Translations under genes and position numbers: made by a program
Notes under the pieces: model-generated
Database searches by the model: none
What the model was told of the DNA's origin: nothing
Seen by the model: only the letters and a program-made list of their open reading frames with translations
From: an uncultured Gammaproteobacteria bacterium
GTDB taxonomy: Bacteria; Patescibacteriota; Microgenomatia; Levybacterales; GWA1-39-11
Assembly (NCBI GenBank): GCA_964425075.1
Contig: CAYRKM010000002.1
Span: 64,058 to 128,057 of the forward strand
Direction of reading: 5' to 3'
DNA length: 64,000 bases
Part shown: piece by piece, positions 62-43,702 of the stretch
How the letters are laid out: each line of letters begins with the position of its first letter
Numbering within the stretch: position 1 is the first letter of the stretch

Positions 62-805
62 ATGAGTAAAACAGCCATTATTATTCTCGTTGTTGGAATC
101 CTTATTTTAGGTGGTATTGGAGCAACTATTTTTGTTTTGAATCAACCACAAGACACTCGTTCTAGAGCTTCAAATCCAACTCCCGCCCCAGTAATACCTA
201 CAACAACTACTGCACCATCAATTTCTCCATCACCAAGTACCCTTGTCACTCCAACTGGCGGAATTGGCGGAGGATCAGCGCAACAATCAACTTGCGCCAC
301 TCCTACTTCAGCTCAAAATGTTTTAGTAGAATACCCGGGATGTGAAGGGGATAATTGTCTATTTACTCAAGCAAGCTGTACTTGGGACCCAAATAATGAT
401 GCTACAACATACAATCTTACTGTTACTGAAGTTGAAACAGGAAGTGTCGTTAGAAATGAGTCAATTCCTAATTCTACTACCAAAGTTTTGTTTCCAGTTA
501 CCCAGGGGAGAACTTATAAATGTGATATAAGCGTTGCAAATTCCTGTGGTAACGTCAGCGCTGTATCATCTGACCAATTACTTTGTGAAGCCGACGCGAT
601 TATTCCTACAGCAACACCTACTGTTGCTACCACTCCAGCCCCTACAGCGTCCGCAACAGCAACTATTGCACCAACTACTGCTCCGACTGTAGTACCAACA
701 ATAACACCAACCCCACCAATAGTTGGAGGACTTACTCCAACACTTAGTGTCTTTGGTGTTGTTTTGATTTTAATTATTGGTGGGATAGTATTCTTAGCGC
801 TTTAA
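62..805 (+). CDS. hypothetical Pro/Thr-rich surface protein with a hydrophobic helix at each terminus
   Basis: 247-aa ORF. N-terminal TM-like IIILVVGILILGGIGATIFVL, P/T/A-rich linkers, a Cys-containing middle module, and C-terminal TM-like VFGVVLILIIGGIVFLAL. No family recognised. Confidence 0.6.
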   Translation: MSKTAIIILVVGILILGGIGATIFVLNQPQDTRSRASNPTPAPVIPTTTTAPSISPSPSTLVTPTGGIGGGSAQQSTCATPTSAQNVLVEYPGCEGDNCLFTQASCTWDPNNDATTYNLTVTEVETGSVVRNESIPNSTTKVLFPVTQGRTYKCDISVANSCGNVSAVSSDQLLCEADAIIPTATPTVATTPAPTASATATIAPTTAPTVVPTITPTPPIVGGLTPTLSVFGVVLILIIGGIVFLAL

Positions 806-1747: not shown

Positions 1748-2988
1748 AAAAACTACTTTTCCTATCGTCAAGTTTTTTGTTCCTATTTCTGCTAATTGCG
1801 TTCCCGCCAAAAACCGACGCACAAAATTTGGCTAACTGCTTAAAGATGAATGTTAATATTCAGGCAACTAATTGGCCAGGAGGAACAGTGAATGTGAGTT
1901 GTGCTGGGGACAATGGACCAAGTGGTTGTGTGGGAAGCTCAAATAGTGGGACACCAGGACAAACAGTACCGCTGGATAAATGTAGCTGTCCACCTTATGC
2001 TGATGGTTGTCTTCAGGCTTCATTTCCTGCTCAATGCACAGAAGTGATTAGTGGACCACGATGTGGAACGAATGGAAATGTAATTGATCCAACAATTACC
2101 GTAAATTGTCCAGAACAAAAGAAAGAGGAACCCAAATGCACAGTTGGTGAAGTTTGTGGAGCTAACGAATGTAGTACTATAAATTGTAATAAAGCATACC
2201 AAAGAAAACGAGATAAGGACTGTAATTGTGTTATAGATCAAAGTACTCAAGTTGATGATAATTCATGCACTCAAGCAGTTACTTGCCCAACACCACCAAC
2301 AACAACACCGACAGTTACAACAACAACTACGCCTCCTGTTACTACAACAACTCCACCAGTGACTACTACAACGCCCCCTGTGAGCCCAACGCCACCATTT
2401 AATGAAACCATGTGTAAGTGCGAAAATATAGAATTTACTCCGATTACATTGGGGCAAAAAACAACAATAACAGCCTTTGGGAAAGTAGAGGGGACTGATA
2501 CTCAATTTGCTAAAATTCCGAGCTTTAATTTTATATTTTATGCAGGAACTGACACGAGCGCGACTGCAATACAGCGTCAAACAGTTGCCGCAACGCAAAT
2601 TGAAAATACTGTTACAAAAGCTCGCTATAAAGCTGTGTGGGAACTCTTAATTCCTTCCAATCTAGATGCTTCCAAAATTTATCGTATTCAAGCAAAGCCA
2701 ACTTGTGTCAAGAAAACTGCTGCAATTGCTCCACCAATTAACCCCACCTCAGCAGTTTTGGCTGCAAAGGATGAAAACACAGGATTTTTTGCTCAACTTG
2801 CAAGATTCTTTGCAAATCTTTTTGGAGGCTCAAAAGATAGCACTTCTGAAGAAGCAACAGTTCAGGATACAGCATCAATACAATCCCAACAATCAAATCT
2901 TCAGATAGGTACATTCCAACCCTTAATTGCAACAAAACAGTCGGACGCGAACAACTGTTCCTTCATTAGGCTAGAATTCGCAAAATAA
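1744..2988 (+). CDS. secreted Cys-rich protein with Thr/Pro-rich linker (hypothetical)
   Basis: ATGA start/stop overlap with the upstream ORF. Signal-peptide-like N-terminus ending KTDAQ, many Cys in the first 180 aa, and a TTTPPVTTTTPPV linker. Confidence 0.6.
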   Translation: MKKLLFLSSSFLFLFLLIAFPPKTDAQNLANCLKMNVNIQATNWPGGTVNVSCAGDNGPSGCVGSSNSGTPGQTVPLDKCSCPPYADGCLQASFPAQCTEVISGPRCGTNGNVIDPTITVNCPEQKKEEPKCTVGEVCGANECSTINCNKAYQRKRDKDCNCVIDQSTQVDDNSCTQAVTCPTPPTTTPTVTTTTTPPVTTTTPPVTTTTPPVSPTPPFNETMCKCENIEFTPITLGQKTTITAFGKVEGTDTQFAKIPSFNFIFYAGTDTSATAIQRQTVAATQIENTVTKARYKAVWELLIPSNLDASKIYRIQAKPTCVKKTAAIAPPINPTSAVLAAKDENTGFFAQLARFFANLFGGSKDSTSEEATVQDTASIQSQQSNLQIGTFQPLIATKQSDANNCSFIRLEFAK

Positions 2989-3043
2989 AACTTCTTGTAT
3001 TTGTTTAGTCTGTTAGTCGGTTGGGAAAACTAACCATAAATTT

Positions 3044-3982
3044 ATGTCATTTTTTAAAAAATATTCAGGTGTTTTGGCTCTTCTAGCAGCAACTCTTTGC
3101 TGGGGACCTGCTCCTGTTGTTACAAAATTAGCGCTTGAGGAAATTCCGCAAATGCAGTTTGCTTTTATAACACGAGGAATTGCTTTTGTTTTACTGTTTC
3201 TTATCTTTTTTAGGAAGGGCTATTTTAAAATTTCCAAAAAACATCTCCCTCTTCTTATAACAGCCGGCTTGTCCGGATCTTTCTTGAATTTCTCGCTTTT
3301 CCTTGGTGGAATAAAATTAACAAATGCAATGGATGCACAAGCAATTTTTACTGTAAGTCCTGTTATAACAGCGATATTTGCACACTATTTCTTAAGGGAA
3401 AGGATAAAGTCAGTGCAGATAATAGGCGTAATTATTGGTTTTTTGGGAGCAGTGCTAATTGCAACAAAGGATTATTGGGAAACGGGAAGTTTGGTAGTTG
3501 GGAATATGTTCGGAAATTTTCTTATTTTTTTGGCTGCTGTTTCGTGGGTCGGGTATATACTGGTTAGCAAAAAGCTTTCAAAAACCTATTCTCCAATTAC
3601 TATTACAATTTATTCCTTTATGATAGGCTTTATAACCTTTATTCCTTTTGCTTTCTATGAGGCTATGGGAAATACATCCTGGATCAACTCACTTAGCAAC
3701 TCAGCCCTAATTGGGCTTGTTTATCAAGGAATATTTTCGTCCGTTCTTGCATTTCTTTTTTACCAAATTGGCCTAAAACTAACAAGTGCTTTTGCAGCGG
3801 GGGTAATTTTATACCTCAATCCTGTCTTAACTTCTGTTTTTTCAATCCCAATTTTAGGAGAAAGATTATCTCTTACATTCCTTATTGGGGCTGCACTTAT
3901 AATAGCTGGCAGCTTTACTGCAACTCAATATGAAACAGTTCGAAAGAGAGTATCCTTCGGTTTTTTCAAACCAAAAGCATGA
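3044..3982 (+). CDS. EamA/DMT-family transporter
   Basis: 312 aa, about 10 predicted TM helices in two similar halves. The sequence style is typical of drug/metabolite transporter (EamA) proteins. Confidence 0.8.
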   Translation: MSFFKKYSGVLALLAATLCWGPAPVVTKLALEEIPQMQFAFITRGIAFVLLFLIFFRKGYFKISKKHLPLLITAGLSGSFLNFSLFLGGIKLTNAMDAQAIFTVSPVITAIFAHYFLRERIKSVQIIGVIIGFLGAVLIATKDYWETGSLVVGNMFGNFLIFLAAVSWVGYILVSKKLSKTYSPITITIYSFMIGFITFIPFAFYEAMGNTSWINSLSNSALIGLVYQGIFSSVLAFLFYQIGLKLTSAFAAGVILYLNPVLTSVFSIPILGERLSLTFLIGAALIIAGSFTATQYETVRKRVSFGFFKPKA

Positions 3983-7808: not shown

Positions 7809-10800
7809 TTGAGTATTATGGAGACTTTACATTCCGGTTTTGATCATCCTCCCGTTGGTCCTGCTCCACATCCTGATTCTTCAGGTAGACCCGTCACCCA
7901 CCCACTTCCTGGCGAGCTAGATGGGGAAGGAATGCTTGATCCAACATCTTTGGATTTCTGGCGAAATCTTCATGCTAACCTTACAGGCTTTATAAGCAAG
8001 AACTATCCCTTTTCAGATTTCCTTAAGAATTTCGATAGTGAGAAAGGGAAAGTGGGTCGCACACATTCAAATGGCGATACAAACGCCACATACGCATACC
8101 TTAATGCAATTTATAAACAGCGTTCATTCTCGCATCCCGGCCATCCTACTCTTGAGCAGCATATCGTCTCGCAATTCACACCTCCTACAGATGACCCCGA
8201 CTTTGCTGAAATTGTTGAAGAAACCCGCTCTCTTATTAGACAGCGTTTTCCAGAACATCAGCTTCCTAGAACGACAAGTCTTGTCAAGCTCCAAGATCCG
8301 GAATTTTGGAGCGAATTTGAGGATGAGCTTTCAAAAACTCCTTCGAGTTCAATATTTGCGGATTTTTTAAAAGGAGGAGGTGGCCTTTCTGAAGACGGTA
8401 GTCAGATGCAGGGAAAGTATCATGATGTCTGGCTTGATATATACGATCCTCGGGGTAGAACTGAATTTAGAAATGCATATAAGGAACAAACAGGAAGAGA
8501 TATAGATACTGATTCTGCAAGAGACGCTCAGAGGATTTTCTTCGAAGTAGCACCAGCACGTATAAAAGCACAGCTTATTAAGAGATATCCGAGAATTTTT
8601 AGTGGATTTGCAGTAGAGTGGGTAGGAAATTCTCAATTACCAAAAGCTGCCCAGGCTGTCATTAACACTCTCGGGTGGTTAGGTGAAGATAACCGAAAAA
8701 AAATACTTGACGTACTTTCGAAATATGTGCATATAGAAACAAGTAGTACTTCGGGTTTTGATTTTTCTGCTGAAGATACTAGCATTATTCTTGGACAAGC
8801 AGCAGAACAATCAGAAGTTGTAGCAGCAGAAGTTGGTCCGCCAACACTCGAAACTATTATTCGAGACGCAACTAATACTTTTCAGCTTGTTGAACAAGAA
8901 AAGTTGGATAATGGGAATTCTGAAAATGAACAACTGTCAAGTGAGCTAACAGCTGCCCTTGAAACATCCTATCTTTACCCAACACTTCGTAATGTTTTAT
9001 ATAAACCTTTCGCACTTTTTTGGTCAAAATATCTGGAGACTCATGGTGGGTCCTCTGTTCCCGAAGATGAAATGAGAAGTTTTCTTGACACATATGCACA
9101 TAATGAAATTGCTCAAACATCTCTATCGCCCGAAGAGCAGCAAATGCTTGAGCGTCTTAAAAAAAATGTTTTTTCCACTATTTTTAGTGAATTTATAGAA
9201 ATTGCAAATTACTCTTCTCAAATTAATCACTTCAGGGAAAGAAGCATCGACGGGAAAGCAAAGCATCTGTTTTTTCATCAGGTTGAGGGAATTAAGCATC
9301 TTGTCGAAAAAGGCGCCGGAATTTTAGCTGATGAACCAGGAACCGGCAAAACAGTGACCCTTGCGCTCGCAGCATTAAATCGAGTTGACCAAAAATTTCG
9401 AGAACCTGGAAAAATAGCAAGGGTGCTAGTTGTTGGATCAAAAACTGTTAATAACAACTGGGAGGAAGAACTTGAAATGCATGTTGCGCCAGGTGATGTC
9501 GATACAGTAAATTTCAATTCTGACGAACTTGCACAGTTAAGCCAGGCAAAACGCCTTGAAATAATGGCACAAAGATTGAAAAATCCTACAGCGGATAGAC
9601 AAGTTTTGCTTGTCAATTACGATCTGTTTCGCAATTCATTTTTTCAGGAACTCCTTCATTCTGCAGGAATTGACTGTACAATAATTGATGAAGCTCATAA
9701 TGTAAAATCGCGTTTTATGGATTCTATTGCTGAGCATAACGACGACACGTCCCATAATGCTCGACTTGCAAAACGCACAACAAATCTTTATAGATTTCTT
9801 CTTTCCAACCCGAATATGGATGTTTATTTGGGTACTAGCACTCCCTTCGTCAAAGAATTAATAGAGCCGCTTATCATGGGTCACCTGGTCGATAGGTGGA
9901 GTCTTCCAATTGACCGGGTTTCAGCTTTAAGGGAGGATCCTGCTGGAGCAAATTTGGCACTTCGTGAAGTAATGATTCGGCGACGAAAGGATGCAATCAG
10001 CGATATCCCCCCAAAAGACACAGACTTTATACCAGTAGACTTAAGCCTACTTAGTGCTGCGGAACGCTCGGAGCTTGTTTCATTGGGCCTTGATATAGAA
10101 AGAGCCGATGAAAGCTCTTTCAGAAGATTTTTTTCCATGTTGTCTATTGAAGCTCAAGCAAAAATGCCCTGGCTTATTGAGAAAATAAACGAGTTAACAT
10201 CTGATGGAAGAAAGGTAGTTGTTTTTACTCCATTCGTTAATGACCAGGAAAGACTTACAGCCTCAATAAGTACGAAGGCTATTGCAAAGCGACTTATTGA
10301 TTCAGGAATTACCTCTGTTGGAGTTCTTGATGGAACTTTAAGTGAAAGCGAAAAACTTGCTGTTCAAAGAGATTTTCATGACCCGAATGGGGTAAGAGTT
10401 TTGGTAGGTAATTATCAAACGGCAGGCGAATCAATTACACTTAATTCGCCTTTCAATAGAGCAACTGAAGTAATTATACTCGTTGCACCAAACACAATAA
10501 GTAGATACATTCAAGCAATTGATAGAGTGCATAGAATCGGACAAGATGAGAAGGTTACTATTCACGTGCCTTTTCTTACGGAAGACCCTATCGCAAGGCC
10601 AGACGGAACATATGACAGACGAATTGTTAGTCGAATGCTTAGAGAACTTTCACTCTTTAATGCTGTTGTAGATGGTTTATTTTTTGTTGAAGCTGCAGAT
10701 TATTACGATGAAATTAGACGGGGAAAAAACGGAAACTCAGAACCAAGAACCGCTCTTGAAAGTGGACAAACAGTTCGTTTGGATACAGAACAGAAGCCTC

Positions 10801-12245
10801 CTGCTGCTACTAAAAAAAGGGGCTTAACTCGGGATGTTTTTGACCAAAACACTGACGGAGCAATAGTACTACCAACAAGCAGAGAGGTAAATTTAAACAG
10901 TATTGGCATAAATCACACACGACATCACCAAATAGACAGAGAGGAAGCTTTGGCAATTACAGATTACTTCGACTCAGTGAGTCAATACCCTCTCCTTACA
11001 GTTGAGCAAGAACGTATAGCATTTAGATATCTAACTGAGGGAAAATCTGTCGCACAACTTCGTGATGATGGAGCATTTCTTGCGGCAAATCCTCGTAGCA
11101 CTGCAAAAATGCTTGCTGTACTTTCCGATAGTCGCTCCGTTAGAGATGTACTTGTTGCCTGTAATTTGAGACTCGTTGCCTCAATAGCAAATAGGTACAA
11201 AGGAAGACTTCCTTACACTGACCTGCTCCAGGAGGGAAATATTGGATTAATTAAGGGAATTGACGATTTTGACCCTGAGCGTGGATTAAAGCTTTCAACA
11301 TATGCAACCTGGTGGATTAAGCAATCAATAAGGCGTGCTATTGCTAATACGTCCCGAACTATTGACTTGCCTGTACACATGCATGAAATGGTCACAAAAA
11401 TGGTGCGTGTTTCAAATGAATTTTTTAGTAAACACCAGCGCTATCCATCTATAGAGGAGCTGGTTTCAGAAGGGTTTACTATATCCCAAGTTAACACAGC
11501 TATGCGCATAGCACGACTTGGAATTTCCAACCCCTCATCTCTTGATAGAACAATAGACGATGATGGTGAAACCACAATCGGGTCATTTGTTTCGGACGAA
11601 GGTGATCTTGAAGAAGAAACTATAGCCGCGATGGAAGAGGCTGAGCAAAGTCATATCGTTGGGCGTGCACTTTTATCTTTAAGCGAACGGGAACAGTTGG
11701 TGCTTACTCTTAGATTCGGGCTTGATGGTTCTGGCACTAGAACCCTTGAACAGGTTGGTAAAGAAATTGGTGTGACAAGAGAAAGAGCACGACAAATAGA
11801 AGTTAGTGCCCTAAAAAGACTTCGAGTAAATACCGGGCTTAGGGAGGCATACGATGGAGATTCCCCAAGTTTGCTTTGGTCAAGGGAAGTCTTGCCTACA
11901 AACGTATTGCCTCTTAGACCAGGGCCAATAGACATTGAGAGGGTCTCAGCAATCTCACAAGCTCAAGAAGTAGAAAGGTTGGAGGAGGAGAAAAACAGTC
12001 TTGAATTTGGCAGACAAGTTGTGGAACAAATAAAAATGGTACCTGATATATGGAATGCTTTAACTGATAGAGAGAAGACGCTTTTGACTCTTTATTTTAA
12101 AGGCACATTTGACCACAACACTACTAAAAGTAGACTTTCAAAAATCTTTGGCATAACCGAACAAGAGCTGTCTGTTTACATCGAGTATTCTGTTGCTTCT
12201 CTAGCCAAACACGTTGGTATGACATCCTCTGAGCTTCCTTCTTGA
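7809..12245 (+). CDS. fusion protein: unknown N-terminal region + SNF2-family ATPase + complete sigma-70 + extra C-terminal region-4-like HTH
   Basis: Single 1478-codon ORF with no internal stop. The track start is TTG at 7809, and an ATG lies at 7818. SNF2 motifs: LADEPGTGKT, IIDEAHNVK, QAIDRVHRIGQ. Sigma motifs: YPLLTVEQE, LLQEGNIGLIKGIDDFD, TYATWWIKQSIRRAI, TIDLPVHMHE, VTRERARQIEVSALKRLR. Confidence 0.85.
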   Translation: MSIMETLHSGFDHPPVGPAPHPDSSGRPVTHPLPGELDGEGMLDPTSLDFWRNLHANLTGFISKNYPFSDFLKNFDSEKGKVGRTHSNGDTNATYAYLNAIYKQRSFSHPGHPTLEQHIVSQFTPPTDDPDFAEIVEETRSLIRQRFPEHQLPRTTSLVKLQDPEFWSEFEDELSKTPSSSIFADFLKGGGGLSEDGSQMQGKYHDVWLDIYDPRGRTEFRNAYKEQTGRDIDTDSARDAQRIFFEVAPARIKAQLIKRYPRIFSGFAVEWVGNSQLPKAAQAVINTLGWLGEDNRKKILDVLSKYVHIETSSTSGFDFSAEDTSIILGQAAEQSEVVAAEVGPPTLETIIRDATNTFQLVEQEKLDNGNSENEQLSSELTAALETSYLYPTLRNVLYKPFALFWSKYLETHGGSSVPEDEMRSFLDTYAHNEIAQTSLSPEEQQMLERLKKNVFSTIFSEFIEIANYSSQINHFRERSIDGKAKHLFFHQVEGIKHLVEKGAGILADEPGTGKTVTLALAALNRVDQKFREPGKIARVLVVGSKTVNNNWEEELEMHVAPGDVDTVNFNSDELAQLSQAKRLEIMAQRLKNPTADRQVLLVNYDLFRNSFFQELLHSAGIDCTIIDEAHNVKSRFMDSIAEHNDDTSHNARLAKRTTNLYRFLLSNPNMDVYLGTSTPFVKELIEPLIMGHLVDRWSLPIDRVSALREDPAGANLALREVMIRRRKDAISDIPPKDTDFIPVDLSLLSAAERSELVSLGLDIERADESSFRRFFSMLSIEAQAKMPWLIEKINELTSDGRKVVVFTPFVNDQERLTASISTKAIAKRLIDSGITSVGVLDGTLSESEKLAVQRDFHDPNGVRVLVGNYQTAGESITLNSPFNRATEVIILVAPNTISRYIQAIDRVHRIGQDEKVTIHVPFLTEDPIARPDGTYDRRIVSRMLRELSLFNAVVDGLFFVEAADYYDEIRRGKNGNSEPRTALESGQTVRLDTEQKPPAATKKRGLTRDVFDQNTDGAIVLPTSREVNLNSIGINHTRHHQIDREEALAITDYFDSVSQYPLLTVEQERIAFRYLTEGKSVAQLRDDGAFLAANPRSTAKMLAVLSDSRSVRDVLVACNLRLVASIANRYKGRLPYTDLLQEGNIGLIKGIDDFDPERGLKLSTYATWWIKQSIRRAIANTSRTIDLPVHMHEMVTKMVRVSNEFFSKHQRYPSIEELVSEGFTISQVNTAMRIARLGISNPSSLDRTIDDDGETTIGSFVSDEGDLEEETIAAMEEAEQSHIVGRALLSLSEREQLVLTLRFGLDGSGTRTLEQVGKEIGVTRERARQIEVSALKRLRVNTGLREAYDGDSPSLLWSREVLPTNVLPLRPGPIDIERVSAISQAQEVERLEEEKNSLEFGRQVVEQIKMVPDIWNALTDREKTLLTLYFKGTFDHNTTKSRLSKIFGITEQELSVYIEYSVASLAKHVGMTSSELPS
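9264..10583 (+). other. SNF2/Swi2-type helicase core (N-lobe plus Helicase_C lobe) inside the fusion ORF
   Basis: aa ~486-925. Walker A LADEPGTGKT (nt 9324-9353), DEAH box IIDEAHNVK (nt 9681-9707), motif III-like LGTSTPF, motif VI QAIDRVHRIGQ (nt 10512-10544). Confidence 0.8.
10938..11828 (+). other. sigma-70 regions 1.2, 2, 3 and 4 inside the fusion ORF
   Basis: aa ~1044-1340. By eye this aligns block for block with RpoD-type sigma factors, including the region 2.4 and 4.2 recognition helices. Confidence 0.85.
12036..12218 (+). other. second region-4-like HTH at the C-terminus of the fusion ORF
   Basis: aa ~1410-1470. LTDREKTLLTLYFKG...SRLSKIFGITEQELSVYIEYSVASLAKHV parallels the upstream LSEREQLVLTLRFGL...LEQVGKEIGVTRERARQIEVSALKRL. 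Confidence 0.55.
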
Positions 12246-13871: not shown

Positions 13872-13981
13872 GTATTACGTATTTTCTTGCCTCACTCATC
13901 CGTCCGAAGGTCGGATGAGCGGGATAAGAACACTTCGCCCTGCTCAGAACCTTGTCCCGTCAAAAAATCCTAGATTTTTTG

Positions 13982-15571: not shown

Positions 15572-15787
15572 CTATTTCTTTCCACCCATTTGTTTTTCCC
15601 AGAGTAGCCAAAGACCAGATAACCCAACCAAAACGTACACTAACCATTCAACTGTTGGCCAAGCTCCAAGAAGCAAATTCACTACGTTGTAATTCGTTCC
15701 GCCCATAAATCCACCAAGTCCAACGAGCAACCAGTTAACCGCACCTACTATAACTAACCACCAAGCGAGAGTTTGTAATGTTTTCAT
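15572..15787 (-). CDS. DUF378-family small membrane protein
   Basis: 71 aa. WWLVIVGAVNWLLVGL...NVVNLLLG is typical of DUF378. A strong SD (AAGGAGGTGA) lies 5 nt upstream. Confidence 0.75.
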   Translation of the reverse strand: MKTLQTLAWWLVIVGAVNWLLVGLGGFMGGTNYNVVNLLLGAWPTVEWLVYVLVGLSGLWLLWEKQMGGKK

Positions 15788-15893
15788 TTTTTATCACCTC
15801 CTTTCGTATAGCCTAATTTAATAGTAGAACTGTTTTGGAATATTAGTCAAGGGGGTAAAATATCAGTACAAGAAGCCTTAAGGTGTACATTCC

Positions 15894-16114
15894 GTCGGGG
15901 ATAAAGCAAGTTTGTCCCCTTCTTCATTTCATTCAGTCGGGGATAAGGAAACCTTGTCCCCACCAAATTCTTCGAGTTTGTCGGGGATAGAGGACTCGTT
16001 CTGTGAAACAGCCTGCAAGACAATCCGACCTGCCGAAGGCAATAATGTCGGGGATAGAGGACTCGTTCTGTGAAACAGTCTGCAAGACAATCCGACCTGC
16101 CGAAGGCAATAATG
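15894..16114 (-). repeat. tandem truncated tRNA-Pro-derived repeats downstream of tRNA-Pro
   Basis: GTCGGGGATA recurs starting at 15894, 15936, 15980, 16047 and 16114. The last copy is the true tRNA 3' end. The two 67-nt units (15980-16046, 16047-16113) differ at 1 nt and carry 19 nt of the tRNA T-arm/acceptor 3' side. Confidence 0.85.
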
Positions 16115-16187
16115 TCGGGGATAGAGGACTCGAACCTCCGACCTCACGGTCCCAAACCGCGCGCTCTACCAACTGAGCTAATCCCCG
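16115..16187 (-). tRNA. tRNA-Pro (TGG)
   Basis: Hand-folded. Acceptor CGGGGAT/ATCCCCG, anticodon loop TTTGGGA, T-loop TTCGAGT. Confidence 0.9.
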
Positions 16188-16408
16188 AATTGTTTATATT
16201 GTAATTCCTCACCTCATCAAATACAAGATTTGAGTCTAAGTGGTGTAAAGTGTATCAAACCACATAATGACCATGTGGATAAGTTCAAATAGTACTTGAC
16301 AAACAGAGTTTGAACGTGCATATTAGTATGGTAAGTTCAAATGAGCTTAAATCATTCTAAAGAATATTTAGAAAGATTATTATAATTGAAAGGAGGTGAA
16401 GTAAAGAT

Positions 16409-16585
16409 ATGAAAATGCAATTTTATGATGTAAAGACTCGAAGCAAAGTTGACGCTGAAGTAACTGAAAAGACTACTTACCAAGTAAAGGGACAAACTAA
16501 ATACGCTGTAAAGGGAAAGACTTCAGACGGACGAAATTTGACTAGATTCGTAAGCAAAGATGCATACGACTCAGCAAACGTTTAG
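16409..16585 (+). CDS. 58-aa Lys-rich small protein (not in ORF track, below 60 aa)
   Basis: ATG preceded by AAGGAGGTGA. Translation: MKMQFYDVKTRSKVDAEVTEKTTYQVKGQTKYAVKGKTSDGRNLTRFVSKDAYDSANV. A TTGACA box lies at 16296-16301, and a 13-bp hairpin at 16621-16651 follows the gene. Confidence 0.6.
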   Translation: MKMQFYDVKTRSKVDAEVTEKTTYQVKGQTKYAVKGKTSDGRNLTRFVSKDAYDSANV

Positions 16586-19530: not shown

Positions 19531-19628
19531 GAACTCGCAAAGTGAACGAAACTAAAGTGCCTGCGCTGAATGAAGCTGAAGTGCTTGCACTGAGTGAAGC
19601 TGAAGTGCTTGCACTGAGTGAAGCGAAG
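19531..19628 (-). repeat. tRNA-trailer tandem repeats (24-nt unit with AGTGCWWGCACT box)
   Basis: Units GAAGTGCTTGCACTGAGTGAAGCT at 19578-19601 and 19602-19624. A variant unit sits at 19554-19577 and a degenerate unit at 19531-19553. The array abuts the 3' end of tRNA-Ala. Confidence 0.85.
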
Positions 19629-19735: not shown

Positions 19736-19800
19736 GAAGTGCCTGTGCTGAGGAACGTAAAGACGAAGTGCCTGCACTGAGAAACGTAAAGACGAAGTGC
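19736..19800 (-). repeat. 29-nt tandem repeat (2.2 copies) of the same box family, upstream of tRNA-Ala
   Basis: GAAGTGCCTGTGCTGAGGAACGTAAAGAC (19736-19764) and GAAGTGCCTGCACTGAGAAACGTAAAGAC (19765-19793), then GAAGTGC. Confidence 0.8.
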
Positions 19801-21679: not shown

Positions 21680-21754
21680 TTTGCCTGCACTGAACAAAGC
21701 TGAATGTGCTTGCACTGAACAAAGCTGAATGTGCTTGCACTGAGTGAAACGAAG
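21680..21754 (-). repeat. tRNA-trailer tandem repeats (three 25-nt units)
   Basis: Units at 21680-21704, 21705-21729 and 21730-21754 (TGTGCTTGCACTGAACAAAGCTGAA and variants). The array abuts the 3' end of tRNA-Leu(TAA). Confidence 0.85.
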
Positions 21755-34938: not shown

Positions 34939-34975
34939 CACAGAAAGGTTTGGATAGGACTCGGATTTTGTCAAA

Positions 34976-35029
34976 GAGTCCTCTCAGGCCCACTTCGTCC
35001 GCCTACCGGCGGACTCAGTGCGGGCACTT
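34976..35029 (+). repeat. displaced duplicate of the tRNA-Leu(GAG) 3' end carrying the CTTC...AGTGCGGGCACT trailer
   Basis: The 17 nt GAGTCCTCTCAGGCCCA at 34976-34992 equals 34922-34938, and the trailer-family sequence follows it. A 5'-end fragment TTTGGGCTTGTCCTGA at 35056-35071 matches 34852-34867 at 15 of 16 positions. Confidence 0.8.
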
Positions 35030-35264: not shown

Positions 35265-35519
35265 ATGCAATATTTTGTGTACATTCTTGAATGCAGTGAT
35301 GGTTCGCTTTATACAGGCTATACAACTGATATAGAGCGAAGGGTGAAAGAGCACAACAAAGGAAAGAGCGGAGCTAAGTCTGTACGAGGGAAATTACCTG
35401 CCGAATTAGTTTACTCCGAAACCTTTGTAACTCTTTCAGAGGCATTGAAACGAGAAGCTGAAATCAAAAGTTGGAAGAGATACGAAAAACAAATGTTAAT
35501 AGCGACGAAGCGGGCGTAA
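35265..35519 (+). CDS. GIY-YIG nuclease-superfamily protein (stand-alone URI domain)
   Basis: 84 aa. YVYILECSDGSLYTGYTTDIERRVKEHN is the canonical GIY-YIG block. It starts 6 nt after tRNA-Phe. Confidence 0.85.
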   Translation: MQYFVYILECSDGSLYTGYTTDIERRVKEHNKGKSGAKSVRGKLPAELVYSETFVTLSEALKREAEIKSWKRYEKQMLIATKRA

Positions 35520-37310: not shown

Positions 37311-37350
37311 TCTCCAAAAAAAATTCTTGAGAAATTAAATTAGAGACAAT

Positions 37351-37491
37351 GATGTGCCTGCACTGTGCAAGAAGTGTTACGTTGTGAAACAAAGTCTCGA
37401 AGTGCTTTCATCGATCAAGAAGTGCTTGCGCTGAACGAAATGGAAGCCTGCACTGAATGAAGTTGAGGTGCTTGCACTGAACGTAGTGAAG
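37351..37491 (-). repeat. tRNA-trailer repeat array downstream of tRNA-Leu(CAG)
   Basis: On the minus strand it reads CTTCACTACGTTCAGTGCAAGCACCTCAACTTCATTCAGTGCAGGC..., with 4-5 boxes of the AGTGCWWGCACT family that degenerate with distance. Confidence 0.8.
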
Positions 37492-39253: not shown

Positions 39254-39352
39254 CTTCACTACGTTCAGTGCAAGCACCTCAACTTCATTCAGTGCAGGCT
39301 TCCATTTCGTTCAGTGCAAGTACTTCGGGGCCTTGTTTCTCAGCGCTTGCAC
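39254..39352 (+). repeat. tRNA-trailer repeat array downstream of tRNA-Leu(TAG)
   Basis: The first 72 nt (39254-39325) match the reverse complement of 37420-37491 at all but 2 positions. Four boxes of the AGTGCWWGCACT family are present. Confidence 0.85.
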
Positions 39353-43299: not shown

Positions 43300-43451
43300 T
43301 TGGTTCAGTTGGTTGCGATGAATTCATTCATCGAGCGATGTTAGAAGTGTGGAGTTGTAACTCAGTTGGGGTTCGACTTTTGAAAAATGGACTCATAAGC
43401 AGAGTTTGCTTTTTGTTTTCGAAAAGTAGCTCAGTTGGTTACATTTTGTGT
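43300..43451 (+). repeat. tRNA-fragment debris (D-arm-like pieces) upstream of tRNA-Val(GAC)
   Basis: CAGTTGG-containing D-arm-like strings at about 43302-43315, 43358-43377 (with GGTTCGAC) and 43427-43441. The last, TAGCTCAGTTGGTTA, is identical to 43459-43473 inside the tRNA. Confidence 0.7.
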
Positions 43452-43525
43452 GGACGATTAGCTCAGTTGGTTAGAGCGTTGCATTGACATTGCAAAGGTC
43501 ACAAGTTCGAATCTTGTATCGTCCA
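43452..43525 (+). tRNA. tRNA-Val (GAC)
   Basis: Hand-folded. Acceptor GGACGAT/ATCGTCC, anticodon arm TTGCA-TTGACAT-TGCAA, T-loop TTCGAAT. The flanks 43442-43451 and 43525-43534 extend the acceptor helix to 17 bp. Confidence 0.9.
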
Positions 43526-43534
43526 CACAAAATG

Positions 43535-43623
43535 CGCTGAAGCGTTGCATTGACATTGCAGAGGCCAGAGAAGGAATTTCATTAATGAAATTCGACTGTC
43601 GTCAGCGAATCCTCTTGGGTCCA
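43535..43623 (+). pseudogene. decayed tRNA-Val-like remnant
   Basis: 20 nt at 43541-43560 are identical to the anticodon arm at 43475-43494. The remnant ends in ...GGGTCCA directly followed by the CTTCACTTCGTTCAGTGCA trailer. No intact T-arm or acceptor is present. Confidence 0.45.
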
Positions 43624-43690
43624 CTTCACTTCGTTCAGTGCAGGCACTTCAGTTTCGTTCAGCACGGGTACTTCGTTACACTCAGCACAG
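43624..43690 (+). repeat. tRNA-trailer repeat array
   Basis: CTTCACTTCGTTCAGTGCAGGCACTTCAGTTTCGTTCAGCACGGGTACTTCGTTACACTCAGCACAGACAC, i.e. three progressively degenerate units. Confidence 0.8.
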
Positions 43691-43702
43691 ACACATTTTC
43701 CC

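Follow-up and report, generated by a model that had tools for sequence, protein, structure and literature searches.

A tandem array of partial tRNA-Pro copies downstream of the tRNA gene in a Levyibacteria-type genome

In a 64,000-nucleotide (nt) stretch of contig CAYRKM010000002.1 (assembly GCA_964425075.1, positions 64,058 to 128,057; hereafter the window), we found that a functional tRNA-Pro(UGG) gene is followed by an array of copies of its own 3' end. The gene lies on the minus strand (16114/16115-16187; ARAGORN; Rfam tRNA model, 67.2 bits), and the array occupies its 3' trailer on the same strand, with two 67-nt units followed by two short hairpin units, none of which is a working tRNA. 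We interpret it as a series of degenerate, partial tandem duplicates of the 3' part of tRNA-Pro, a tentative reading to which we give a probability of about 0.45. This reading builds on direct observations: the anatomy of the array, the homology of its longer unit across genomes, the polarity of the copies, the match between unit ends and the local tRNA, and differences in copy number. The units would be transcribed with tRNA-Pro and trimmed away by normal 3' processing, without serving any function themselves. The array is real and orderly, and probably is no new machine.

The preliminary description of this locus, made from the sequence alone, proposed a tRNA-Pro gene followed by copies of its 3' part, and ARAGORN, Rfam, Tandem Repeats Finder and a count of exact matches bear it out. 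The motif TATCCCCGAC is both the 3' end of tRNA-Pro and the terminus of all four units. It has five exact occurrences on the tRNA strand (at 15894, 15936, 15980, 16047 and 16114) and none elsewhere in the window; allowing at most one mismatch adds two one-mismatch sites elsewhere, with about 1.2 expected by chance in 64 kb. The repeated block has its first copy in the last 19-20 nt of tRNA-Pro (CGAGTCCTCTATCCCCGAC), and on the plus strand an exact 20-nt block, TGTCGGGGATAGAGGACTCG, occurs three times at 67-nt intervals, the third being the tRNA-Pro 3' end. Tandem Repeats Finder reports a period of 67 nt, 2.3 copies, 98% matches and a score of 301 over 15979-16132. The gene does not encode the CCA past its first C. 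The same organization (discriminator, a single encoded C, then a base other than C) is seen in 13 of the 14 tRNA genes of the window, a full CCA being encoded in tRNA-His only.

The two 67-nt units had been described as differing at one nucleotide, and the repeat search recovers them as such: unit 1 ('T-type', minus strand, 16047-16113) and unit 2 (minus strand, 15980-16046) are 99% identical (66/67), the sole difference being a C at plus-strand position 16012 versus a T at 16079. Unit 1 reads, in order, the trailer ATTAT, a mini hairpin (TGCC-TTC-GGCA), GGTCGGA, hairpin 1 (GTCT-TGC-AGAC), hairpin 2 (CTGT-TTC-ACAG) and the last 19 nt of the tRNA; through the change in unit 2, a U-A pair of hairpin 1 becomes U-G. 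The general order of such units is trailer, small hairpin, G(T/C)CG(G/A)A, TTGT leading into hairpin 1, hairpin 2 and tRNA end. The segment GGTCGGA corresponds to the variable loop and the 5' strand of the T stem, and the right piece of the unit corresponds to the tRNA from T-loop position 56 onward. The preliminary description had taken the 5' part of the unit (AGGTCGGA, with TCGGATT) for an acceptor 5' strand that had lost two G's. This parse is wrong; in one relative (locus L011) the tRNA and the unit both read GGCCGAA at that place.

The two short units had been said to measure about 42 nt and to form hairpins, and folding agrees. Unit 3 (minus strand, 15936-15979) contains the spacer AAACTCGAAGAATTTGGT, the hairpin GGGGACAAGG-TTT-CCTTATCCCC (15939-15961), GAC and the common terminus, whereas unit 4 (minus strand, 15894-15935) contains the spacer TGAATGAAATGAAGAA, the hairpin GGGGACAAACTTGCTTTATCCCC (15897-15919) and GAC; they are 84% alike over 32 nt. 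As RNA, the acceptor-like hairpin of unit 3 (GGGGACAAGG-UUU-CCUUAUCCCC) is predicted at -13.0 kcal/mol (z = -1.1) and that of unit 4 (GGGGACAAACUUGCUUUAUCCCC) at -8.1 kcal/mol (z = -1.8). For the 67-nt units, predicted folding is no better than that of shuffled controls (z = +0.1 and +0.5), and the array as a whole has z = -0.9; the idea of a strongly structured RNA was rejected on these values.

Several other identities were considered for the array. ARAGORN and Rfam (at E <= 1) gave no tRNA or other RNA family in 15894-16113, tRNA-Pro itself being the sole match. The 67-nt units have no acceptor 5' strand, D arm or anticodon loop, and so are neither functional tRNAs nor tRNA-like genes. No terminator-like site was found on the tRNA strand between tRNA-Pro and the units; nor do the units provide an intrinsic terminator on that strand, the hairpin of unit 4 being terminator-like on the plus strand only. 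Coding potential was ruled out, since a length of 67 nt is not divisible by 3 and neither an ATG nor a ribosome-binding site is present in the units. A putative antisense promoter in each unit (AAGACA-18-AATAAT, plus strand) was dropped because it is not conserved in loci L008 and L014. A CRISPR (clustered regularly interspaced short palindromic repeats) array was rejected, because its two 47-nt 'spacers' would be the same save for one nucleotide; a Cas3-like C-terminal helicase-domain match inside a RecG-type helicase was the only match to a Cas family in the window. The end of the array region is marked by a promoter-like site (TTGACT-18-TACTAT, minus strand, 15821-15850) for a 71-aa DUF378 gene (Pfam PF04070, minus strand, 15572-15787), which is the first gene 3' of the array. 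A motif upstream of DUF378, CCCTCTTGAC, is conserved in four relatives (L006, L007, L009 and L011), and in the first three DUF378 directly follows tRNA-Pro, without units between them.

The comparison with related genomes used a conserved 58-aa gene (plus strand, 16409-16585) as synteny anchor. Its closest relatives are in metagenome-assembled genomes labelled Candidatus Levyibacteriota, many others being mislabelled 'uncultured Gammaproteobacteria', and on this basis we treat the window as coming from a Levyibacteria-type bacterium of the Candidate Phyla Radiation. With this anchor we fetched 16 orthologous loci that keep tRNA-Pro in position, and the flanks of relatives cover from about 4 kb (anchor loci) to about 10 kb. 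A single homologous unit follows tRNA-Pro in L008, L011, L014 and L015, and variant units occur in L013 and L018. There is no unit after tRNA-Pro in L006, L007, L009, L010, L012 and L019-L021, and units are thus missing from about half of the related genomes examined. The preliminary description had suggested comparing unit numbers between relatives; the outcome is one unit, a variant or none, versus two in the window. This supports its proposal of amplification by slippage or unequal recombination as far as the doubling of the 67-nt unit is concerned, since relatives have one copy and the window has two that differ at 1 nt.

We built a covariance model (R1) from five units. It scores the window units at 77.8 (unit 1) and 75.8 bits (unit 2), and it finds the unit of L015, which was outside the training set, at 52.7 bits, together with a second, diverged copy at 35 bits. 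The model locates the unit at tRNA-Pro loci only; in addition, all genuine tRNA-Pro 3' ends match it at 23-28 bits, the hairpin positions being deleted in these alignments. The unit thus corresponds to the last ~30 nt of the tRNA, in which an insert of 20-45 nt replaces the GGTT of the T stem and loop. The term 'internally deleted tRNA' used in the preliminary description was therefore right in spirit, although the R1 matches describe the unit better as a tRNA end with a hairpin insert at the T loop. In L011, the left piece (GGCCGAA) and the right piece (CCTTTCACCCCGAC) both follow that genome's own tRNA. More generally, tRNA ends and trailers vary between genomes, but in any one genome the repeated stretch (19-20 nt, extended in relatives by 6-19 nt of trailer) is 100% identical to the local tRNA end. 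The downstream copies of L018 and L015 keep the D arm as well, and that of L018 starts near tRNA position 6 and extends to the 3' end, as expected of a tandem duplicate.

The part of the unit that is not repeated is 77-86% identical between genomes, versus 78-85% for neighbouring intergenic DNA. The unit therefore looks inherited rather than freshly transferred, and the idea that it is exceptionally conserved is unsupported. Window positions 15915-15945 (the end of unit 3, the spacer and the start of unit 4) match the end of tRNA-Pro, its trailer and the beginning of the hairpin in L017 at 90% identity, which suggests that older ends are distal and newer material is proximal to the tRNA.

The copies are not restricted to tRNA-Pro. 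Among 58 tRNAs of the window and its relatives, we searched 300 nt on either side for the exact 8-mer made of the acceptor 3' strand and the discriminator. Downstream on the same strand there are 16 recurrences, distributed over 13 of the 58 tRNAs, with about 0.3 expected by chance; the controls gave 0 upstream on the same strand, 0 downstream in antisense and 1 upstream in antisense. A more sensitive scan found 3' tRNA fragments downstream and 5' fragments mostly upstream of the intact genes, nearly always on the same strand. The pattern of tRNA-end copies is lineage-wide and polar. A tRNA control set from loci outside Levyibacteria held 4 tRNAs only, too few for use.

If the array is a stack of partial duplicates, its history might be the following. 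An old partial duplicate would have covered the 3' part of the tRNA, starting at approximately the anticodon arm or the variable loop, together with the trailer. It would survive as a single unit in several relatives, its T loop swapped for two small hairpins. Unequal recombination between sister strands, or replication slippage, presumably between the tRNA-end repeats, would then have deleted the unit in some lineages and doubled the 67-nt unit in the window genome. The tRNA end and the unit end are direct repeats of 19-38 nt about 50 nt apart, and either process would keep these ends identical, in a form of concerted evolution, while the single-copy middle drifts. The short hairpin units would be older remains of the same kind, with acceptor strands joined to a shrunken T arm.

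Several observations weigh against this interpretation. The two hairpins of the insert are paired in 35 of 35 sequence-by-pair cells, which is unexpected of pure debris. The 3' end of tRNA-Pro is a recombination hotspot, and in relatives tRNA-Pro is an established target of a recombinase. In L015 (minus strand, 2827-3486), two unit copies (90% identical) bracket ~480 nt, an arrangement that resembles attachment (att) sites; the bracketed DNA holds a unit with a D-arm fragment and a 93-aa open reading frame (ORF) without Pfam match. Finally, the nested arrangement of 5' fragments upstream and 3' fragments downstream also fits insertion into a tRNA gene. These points are taken up with the alternatives to which they lend support.

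Direct repeats of tRNA 3' ends are known to flank integrated islands and prophages, as att sites. The array could accordingly consist of serial scars of site-specific integration at tRNA-Pro, each element having added a copy of the tRNA end before its interior was deleted, with the newest copy nearest the tRNA. We regard this as unlikely, but it has several points in its favour. As at att sites, the copies lie downstream of the tRNA, on its strand, and start in the T loop, and relatives have a recombinase that targets this very tRNA. L012 encodes a 514-aa large serine recombinase (domains Resolvase, Recombinase and Zn_ribbon_recom; 2053-3597) directly 3' of tRNA-Pro on the opposite strand, the last 20 nt of its reading frame being the last 20 nt of tRNA-Pro; L021 carries a frameshifted version. 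The family of ~515-aa recombinases has more than 1262 homologues at E <= 1e-30 in genomes of the Candidate Phyla Radiation (CPR). The 20-nt overlap between ORF and tRNA recurs in five further contigs, at tRNA-Pro genes with anticodons UGG, GGG and CGG (L104, 13593-15125 and 10001-11665; L105, L106/L107 and L109, ~10001-11557), and a sixth recombinase contig that we inspected ends in the tRNA. At the loci inspected, the junction always reads ...CCCCGAC|TA, and the conserved C-terminal SRG of the recombinase is encoded by the antisense of TCCCCGACT at this junction. Gene content 3' of tRNA-Pro varies between relatives, and the cargo of the L106 island includes restriction and GmrSD-type genes. 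The bracketed ORF of L015 and the similarity of 15915-15945 to the L017 tRNA end, with newer material proximal to an old end, fit the same scenario.

The details of the recombinase loci argue otherwise. When the two tandem recombinase genes of L104 are compared, the homology to the tRNA breaks off immediately behind CGAC; this places the crossover at the extreme 3' end of the tRNA, where integration duplicates no 19 nt. In L012, L021, L104-L106 and L109 we sought the far ends by mismatch search, local alignment and a search for inverted arms, and no displaced copy of the tRNA end was found at five recombinase loci within ~10-15 kb of flank. Together these results imply that the recombinase marks a hotspot and does not alone explain the 19-nt duplicates. 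For the window, the preliminary description had noted no integrase and no cargo between the copies; no ORF of at least 100 aa has a Pfam match to an integrase or transposase, and the copies abut without cargo. That description also envisaged elements carrying the core as attP. A search with the pattern GGTCGGATTGTN{15,45}CRAGTCCTYT gave 3 matches in viral contigs and 14 in metagenome contigs of the Joint Genome Institute, all attributable to chance and none followed by CCCCGAC, and no attP-bearing element came to light. Its idea of serial att-site scars thus keeps indirect support, from the use of tRNA-Pro by serine recombinases in relatives, the variable downstream DNA and the bracketed ORF of L015, and loses ground on the position of the crossover and the missing 19-nt copies.

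A similarly low probability attaches to a second alternative, raised in the preliminary description as tRNA-like minihelices, that the units are functional RNA modules. The end of each unit exactly mimics the acceptor 3' strand, discriminator and C, and units co-transcribed with tRNA-Pro might be cut or marked by RNase Z, the CCA-adding enzyme and possibly RNase P. Small hairpin RNAs would be released, or the units would serve as decoys or as punctuation for processing, as has been suggested for rtT of Escherichia coli. The main point in favour of a function is the covariation of the two hairpins. Hairpin 1 occurs as GTCT/AGAC, GTGC/GCAC and GTTCC/GGAAC, and hairpin 2 as CTGT/ACAG, CTGC/GCAG and CAGT/ACTG. 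Both sides have changed in 4 of 7 hairpin pairs, a value reached in none of 500 shuffles and in no slid register (n = 5 sequences). The sole difference between the window copies also keeps the pairing, as U-G. Such pairing-preserving changes could also come from template-switch mutation inside palindromes. The hairpin units of tRNA-Pro and tRNA-Gly(UCC) share the core ACAAGGTT, with arms that fit their own tRNA (GGGGA/TCCCC versus CGGGA/TCCCG). The lack of a terminator between tRNA-Pro and the units would allow co-transcription, and a stable RNA is produced from one of the analogous E. coli repeats (PMC3318445, citing Bosl and Kersten 1991).

Against such a function, the 67-nt units fold no better than shuffled sequence and the short ones only slightly better, none matches an Rfam family, and about half of the related genomes do without them. 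RNase Z and RNase P have substrate rules that make RNAs without a T arm or an acceptor 5' strand poor substrates; the units have no T arm, and the 67-nt ones also lack the acceptor 5' strand, so they are predicted to be processed poorly. Moreover, a spacer motif common to other tRNA trailers has the opposite orientation here.

A broader version of this idea, which we consider somewhat less probable still, is that the tRNA trailers of this CPR lineage are purpose-built. They would combine acceptor-end mimics and covarying hairpins, be co-transcribed with the tRNA and be recognised by the machinery acting on tRNA ends or by recombinases specific for them, and would serve as punctuation, as sources of small RNAs or as decoy sites protecting the tRNA end. 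Possible examples are the tRNA-Pro units, the mimics after tRNA-Gly and tRNA-Leu, and arrays of 24-nt units ending in ...GCAC after five other tRNAs. The mimic after tRNA-Gly(UCC) is a hairpin GGGACAAGG...CTTATCCCGCTC ending in ATCCCGCTC (minus strand, 13917-13958), also present in L011 and L015. The unit after tRNA-Leu(GAG) (plus strand, 34956-34993) carries an insert at the same T-loop position (GGA|TTTTGTCAAA|GAGTCC) and ends in its own 18-nt tRNA end. A hairpin TCCGCC-TACC-GGCGGA breaks the trailer unit after this tRNA-Leu(GAG).

Break repair could also have produced such copies: endonucleases would make double-strand breaks in the conserved D-loop or T-loop DNA of tRNA genes, and repair by copying with template switching would leave duplicated pieces, palindromic fill-ins and amplifications. 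The insert occupies the same T-loop position (after GGA and before C/GAGTCC) in the units of tRNA-Pro and tRNA-Leu(GAG), and D-loop inserts are found in L015, L018 and L001. Three ORFs in ~200 kb of the lineage encode only a GIY-YIG domain, and all three are adjacent to tRNAs (84-88 aa, and a fragment in L017): 35265-35516 in the window (plus strand), 387-653 in L001 (minus strand) and 905-1057 in L017 (minus strand). The L001 ORF lies between the intact tRNA-Pro gene and a 17-nt copy of its 5' part. There is a precedent for the process in the phage GIY-YIG enzyme SegB, which drives tandem amplification at a tRNA locus via microhomology (PMC13096335). Yet no GIY-YIG ORF lies at the tRNA-Pro of the window, proteins of 84-88 aa amount to the catalytic domain only, and the unit seems to have been inherited, not formed afresh in every genome. 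We thus hold this scenario to be improbable, clearly more so than integration or RNA function. The GIY-YIG ORF of the window begins 5 nt after tRNA-Phe and is followed by CCCCGCTC, a copy of the end of tRNA-Gly(GCC), just upstream of tRNA-Gly(GCC) itself.

Searches of Logan contigs and for exact proteins found no independent assembly of the same species that spans the array: two contigs identical to the window (L002 and L003) carry the 58-aa gene but break inside tRNA-Pro, and no protein identical to the DUF378 protein or the major facilitator superfamily transporter was found elsewhere. Although these breaks, and the probable origin of the sequence in a metagenome-assembled genome, leave room for a short-read mis-assembly that created the second 67-nt copy or the whole array, such an artefact is very improbable, given that the two copies differ at 1 nt, that at least four independently assembled genomes have homologous units, and that assemblers usually collapse short tandem repeats rather than expand them.

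The closest known case to the array is that of the 178-bp repeats (rtT) of E. coli tyrT-tyrV. In E. coli K-12, these have a period of 178 bp and 3.1 copies, start inside tyrV, and AATCCTTCCCCCACCACCA recurs after each unit; annotations of this region comprise the small RNA RttR and the peptide gene tpr. The window and K-12 both have a tandem repeat that begins in the 3' end or T loop of the tRNA, with units that lie downstream on the same strand and end in the last 19 nt of the tRNA, and the E. coli repeats lie within the tRNA transcription unit. The differences are also clear. The two arrays have no sequence similarity, and the window array has no Rfam match besides the tRNA at E <= 1. Its units are much shorter (67 nt and ~42 nt versus 178 nt) and encode no peptide. 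The conserved double-hairpin insert at the T-loop position, the class of acceptor-mimic hairpins and the pattern across many tRNAs of the lineage set it further apart. One of the E. coli repeats is reported to encode the rtT RNA (PMC3318445, citing Bosl and Kersten 1991).

Other systems resemble the array in part. Double-hairpin elements and other small palindromic insertions are known in organelle genomes. The inserts described here are similar to them in size (~20-45 nt), in having two adjacent hairpins whose stems change with pairing kept (in a sample of five sequences), and in lying in or near structural RNA genes. To our knowledge, such elements have been described in mitochondria and not in bacteria, and the present inserts, unlike them, are seen only inside tRNA-derived fragments. 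A related insert is found at tRNA-Leu(GAG), and a different double hairpin is common to L001 and L010. The latter, TCCGCCnnnGGCGGA-TCAGCCnnGGCTGA, lies in L001 at ~660-720 (minus strand) and in L010 at 449-520 (minus strand, after tRNA-Gly), in both cases within a D-arm-like fragment (GTAGCT...), and the hairpin TCCGCC-TACC-GGCGGA is related to it. The SegB amplification of T-even phages shares with our locus the tandem repeats at a tRNA, and the GIY-YIG ORFs of the lineage are tRNA-adjacent; but its 718-bp repeats contain whole genes and are under selection in the phage, whereas the units of the window are sub-genic and have no endonuclease gene at the locus. Compared with att sites, finally, the window has neither cargo nor detectable integrase, and the recombinase of the relatives crosses over at the tRNA end, with no long duplicate found. 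A literature search on tRNA repeats of Levyibacteria returned nothing.

If the array is indeed a stack of partial duplicates, it shows how tRNA genes of reduced genomes shed and homogenise partial copies of themselves, and cargo-free copies of tRNA ends should not be annotated as borders of islands. If instead the units are processed RNAs, bacteria would have in them a counterpart of tRNA-like processing signals, and the long-unexplained rtT of E. coli would gain a relative. Two by-products of the analysis may be worth more than the array. The first is the very large family of CPR serine recombinases apparently dedicated to the 3' end of tRNA-Pro. The second is the pervasiveness of tRNA-linked repeats in the lineage, including 24-nt arrays, nested tRNA fragments and tRNA-adjacent GIY-YIG genes.

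The 24-nt arrays consist of tandem units (TTCnnTTCnnTCAGTGCAAGCAC) at 19543-19627, 21682-21753 and ~37350-37490 (minus strand) and at 39255-39350 and 43622-43694 (plus strand). They start right after tRNA-Ala, tRNA-Leu(UAA/CAG/UAG) and tRNA-Val(GAC), with 2.5-6 units each, and a further array lies upstream of tRNA-Ala (minus strand, 19736-19800). Each unit ends in ...GCAC, like the tRNA end ...CAC. The motif is tRNA-adjacent in 14 of its 15 matches, with about 1.2 matches expected by chance, and it was not found at the loci of relatives. The tRNA-Val(GAC) gene (43452-43526) lies inside a split pseudo-copy of itself (plus strand, 43427-43621): a D-arm piece (positions 8-22) is found 10 nt upstream and an exact copy of the anticodon arm (positions 24-43) 14 nt downstream, and the short inverted repeats CATTTTGT and ACAAAATG flank the intact gene.

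The 64-kb window encodes ordinary cellular genes, including those for pentose-phosphate enzymes, aminoacyl-tRNA synthetases, IF3, L20, RecG, RNase III, TrmD, transporters, MgsA and a penicillin-binding protein, with 14 dispersed tRNA genes (ARAGORN) and a G+C content of about 37-38%. A phage origin was ruled out on account of this housekeeping content, the tRNA itself being the sole similarity to phages. A 1478-aa ORF (plus strand, 7809-12245) joins an SNF2/helicase module (residues ~490-911) with complete sigma-70 regions 2, 3 and 4 (residues ~1115-1339). In the promoter region of the 58-aa gene (plus strand, 16280-16342), a TTGACA-type promoter is flanked by the two copies of an exact 11-nt direct repeat, TAAGTTCAAAT. 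Some relatives have a FUR-family gene between the 58-aa gene and a ZIP zinc transporter, which suggests metal regulation.

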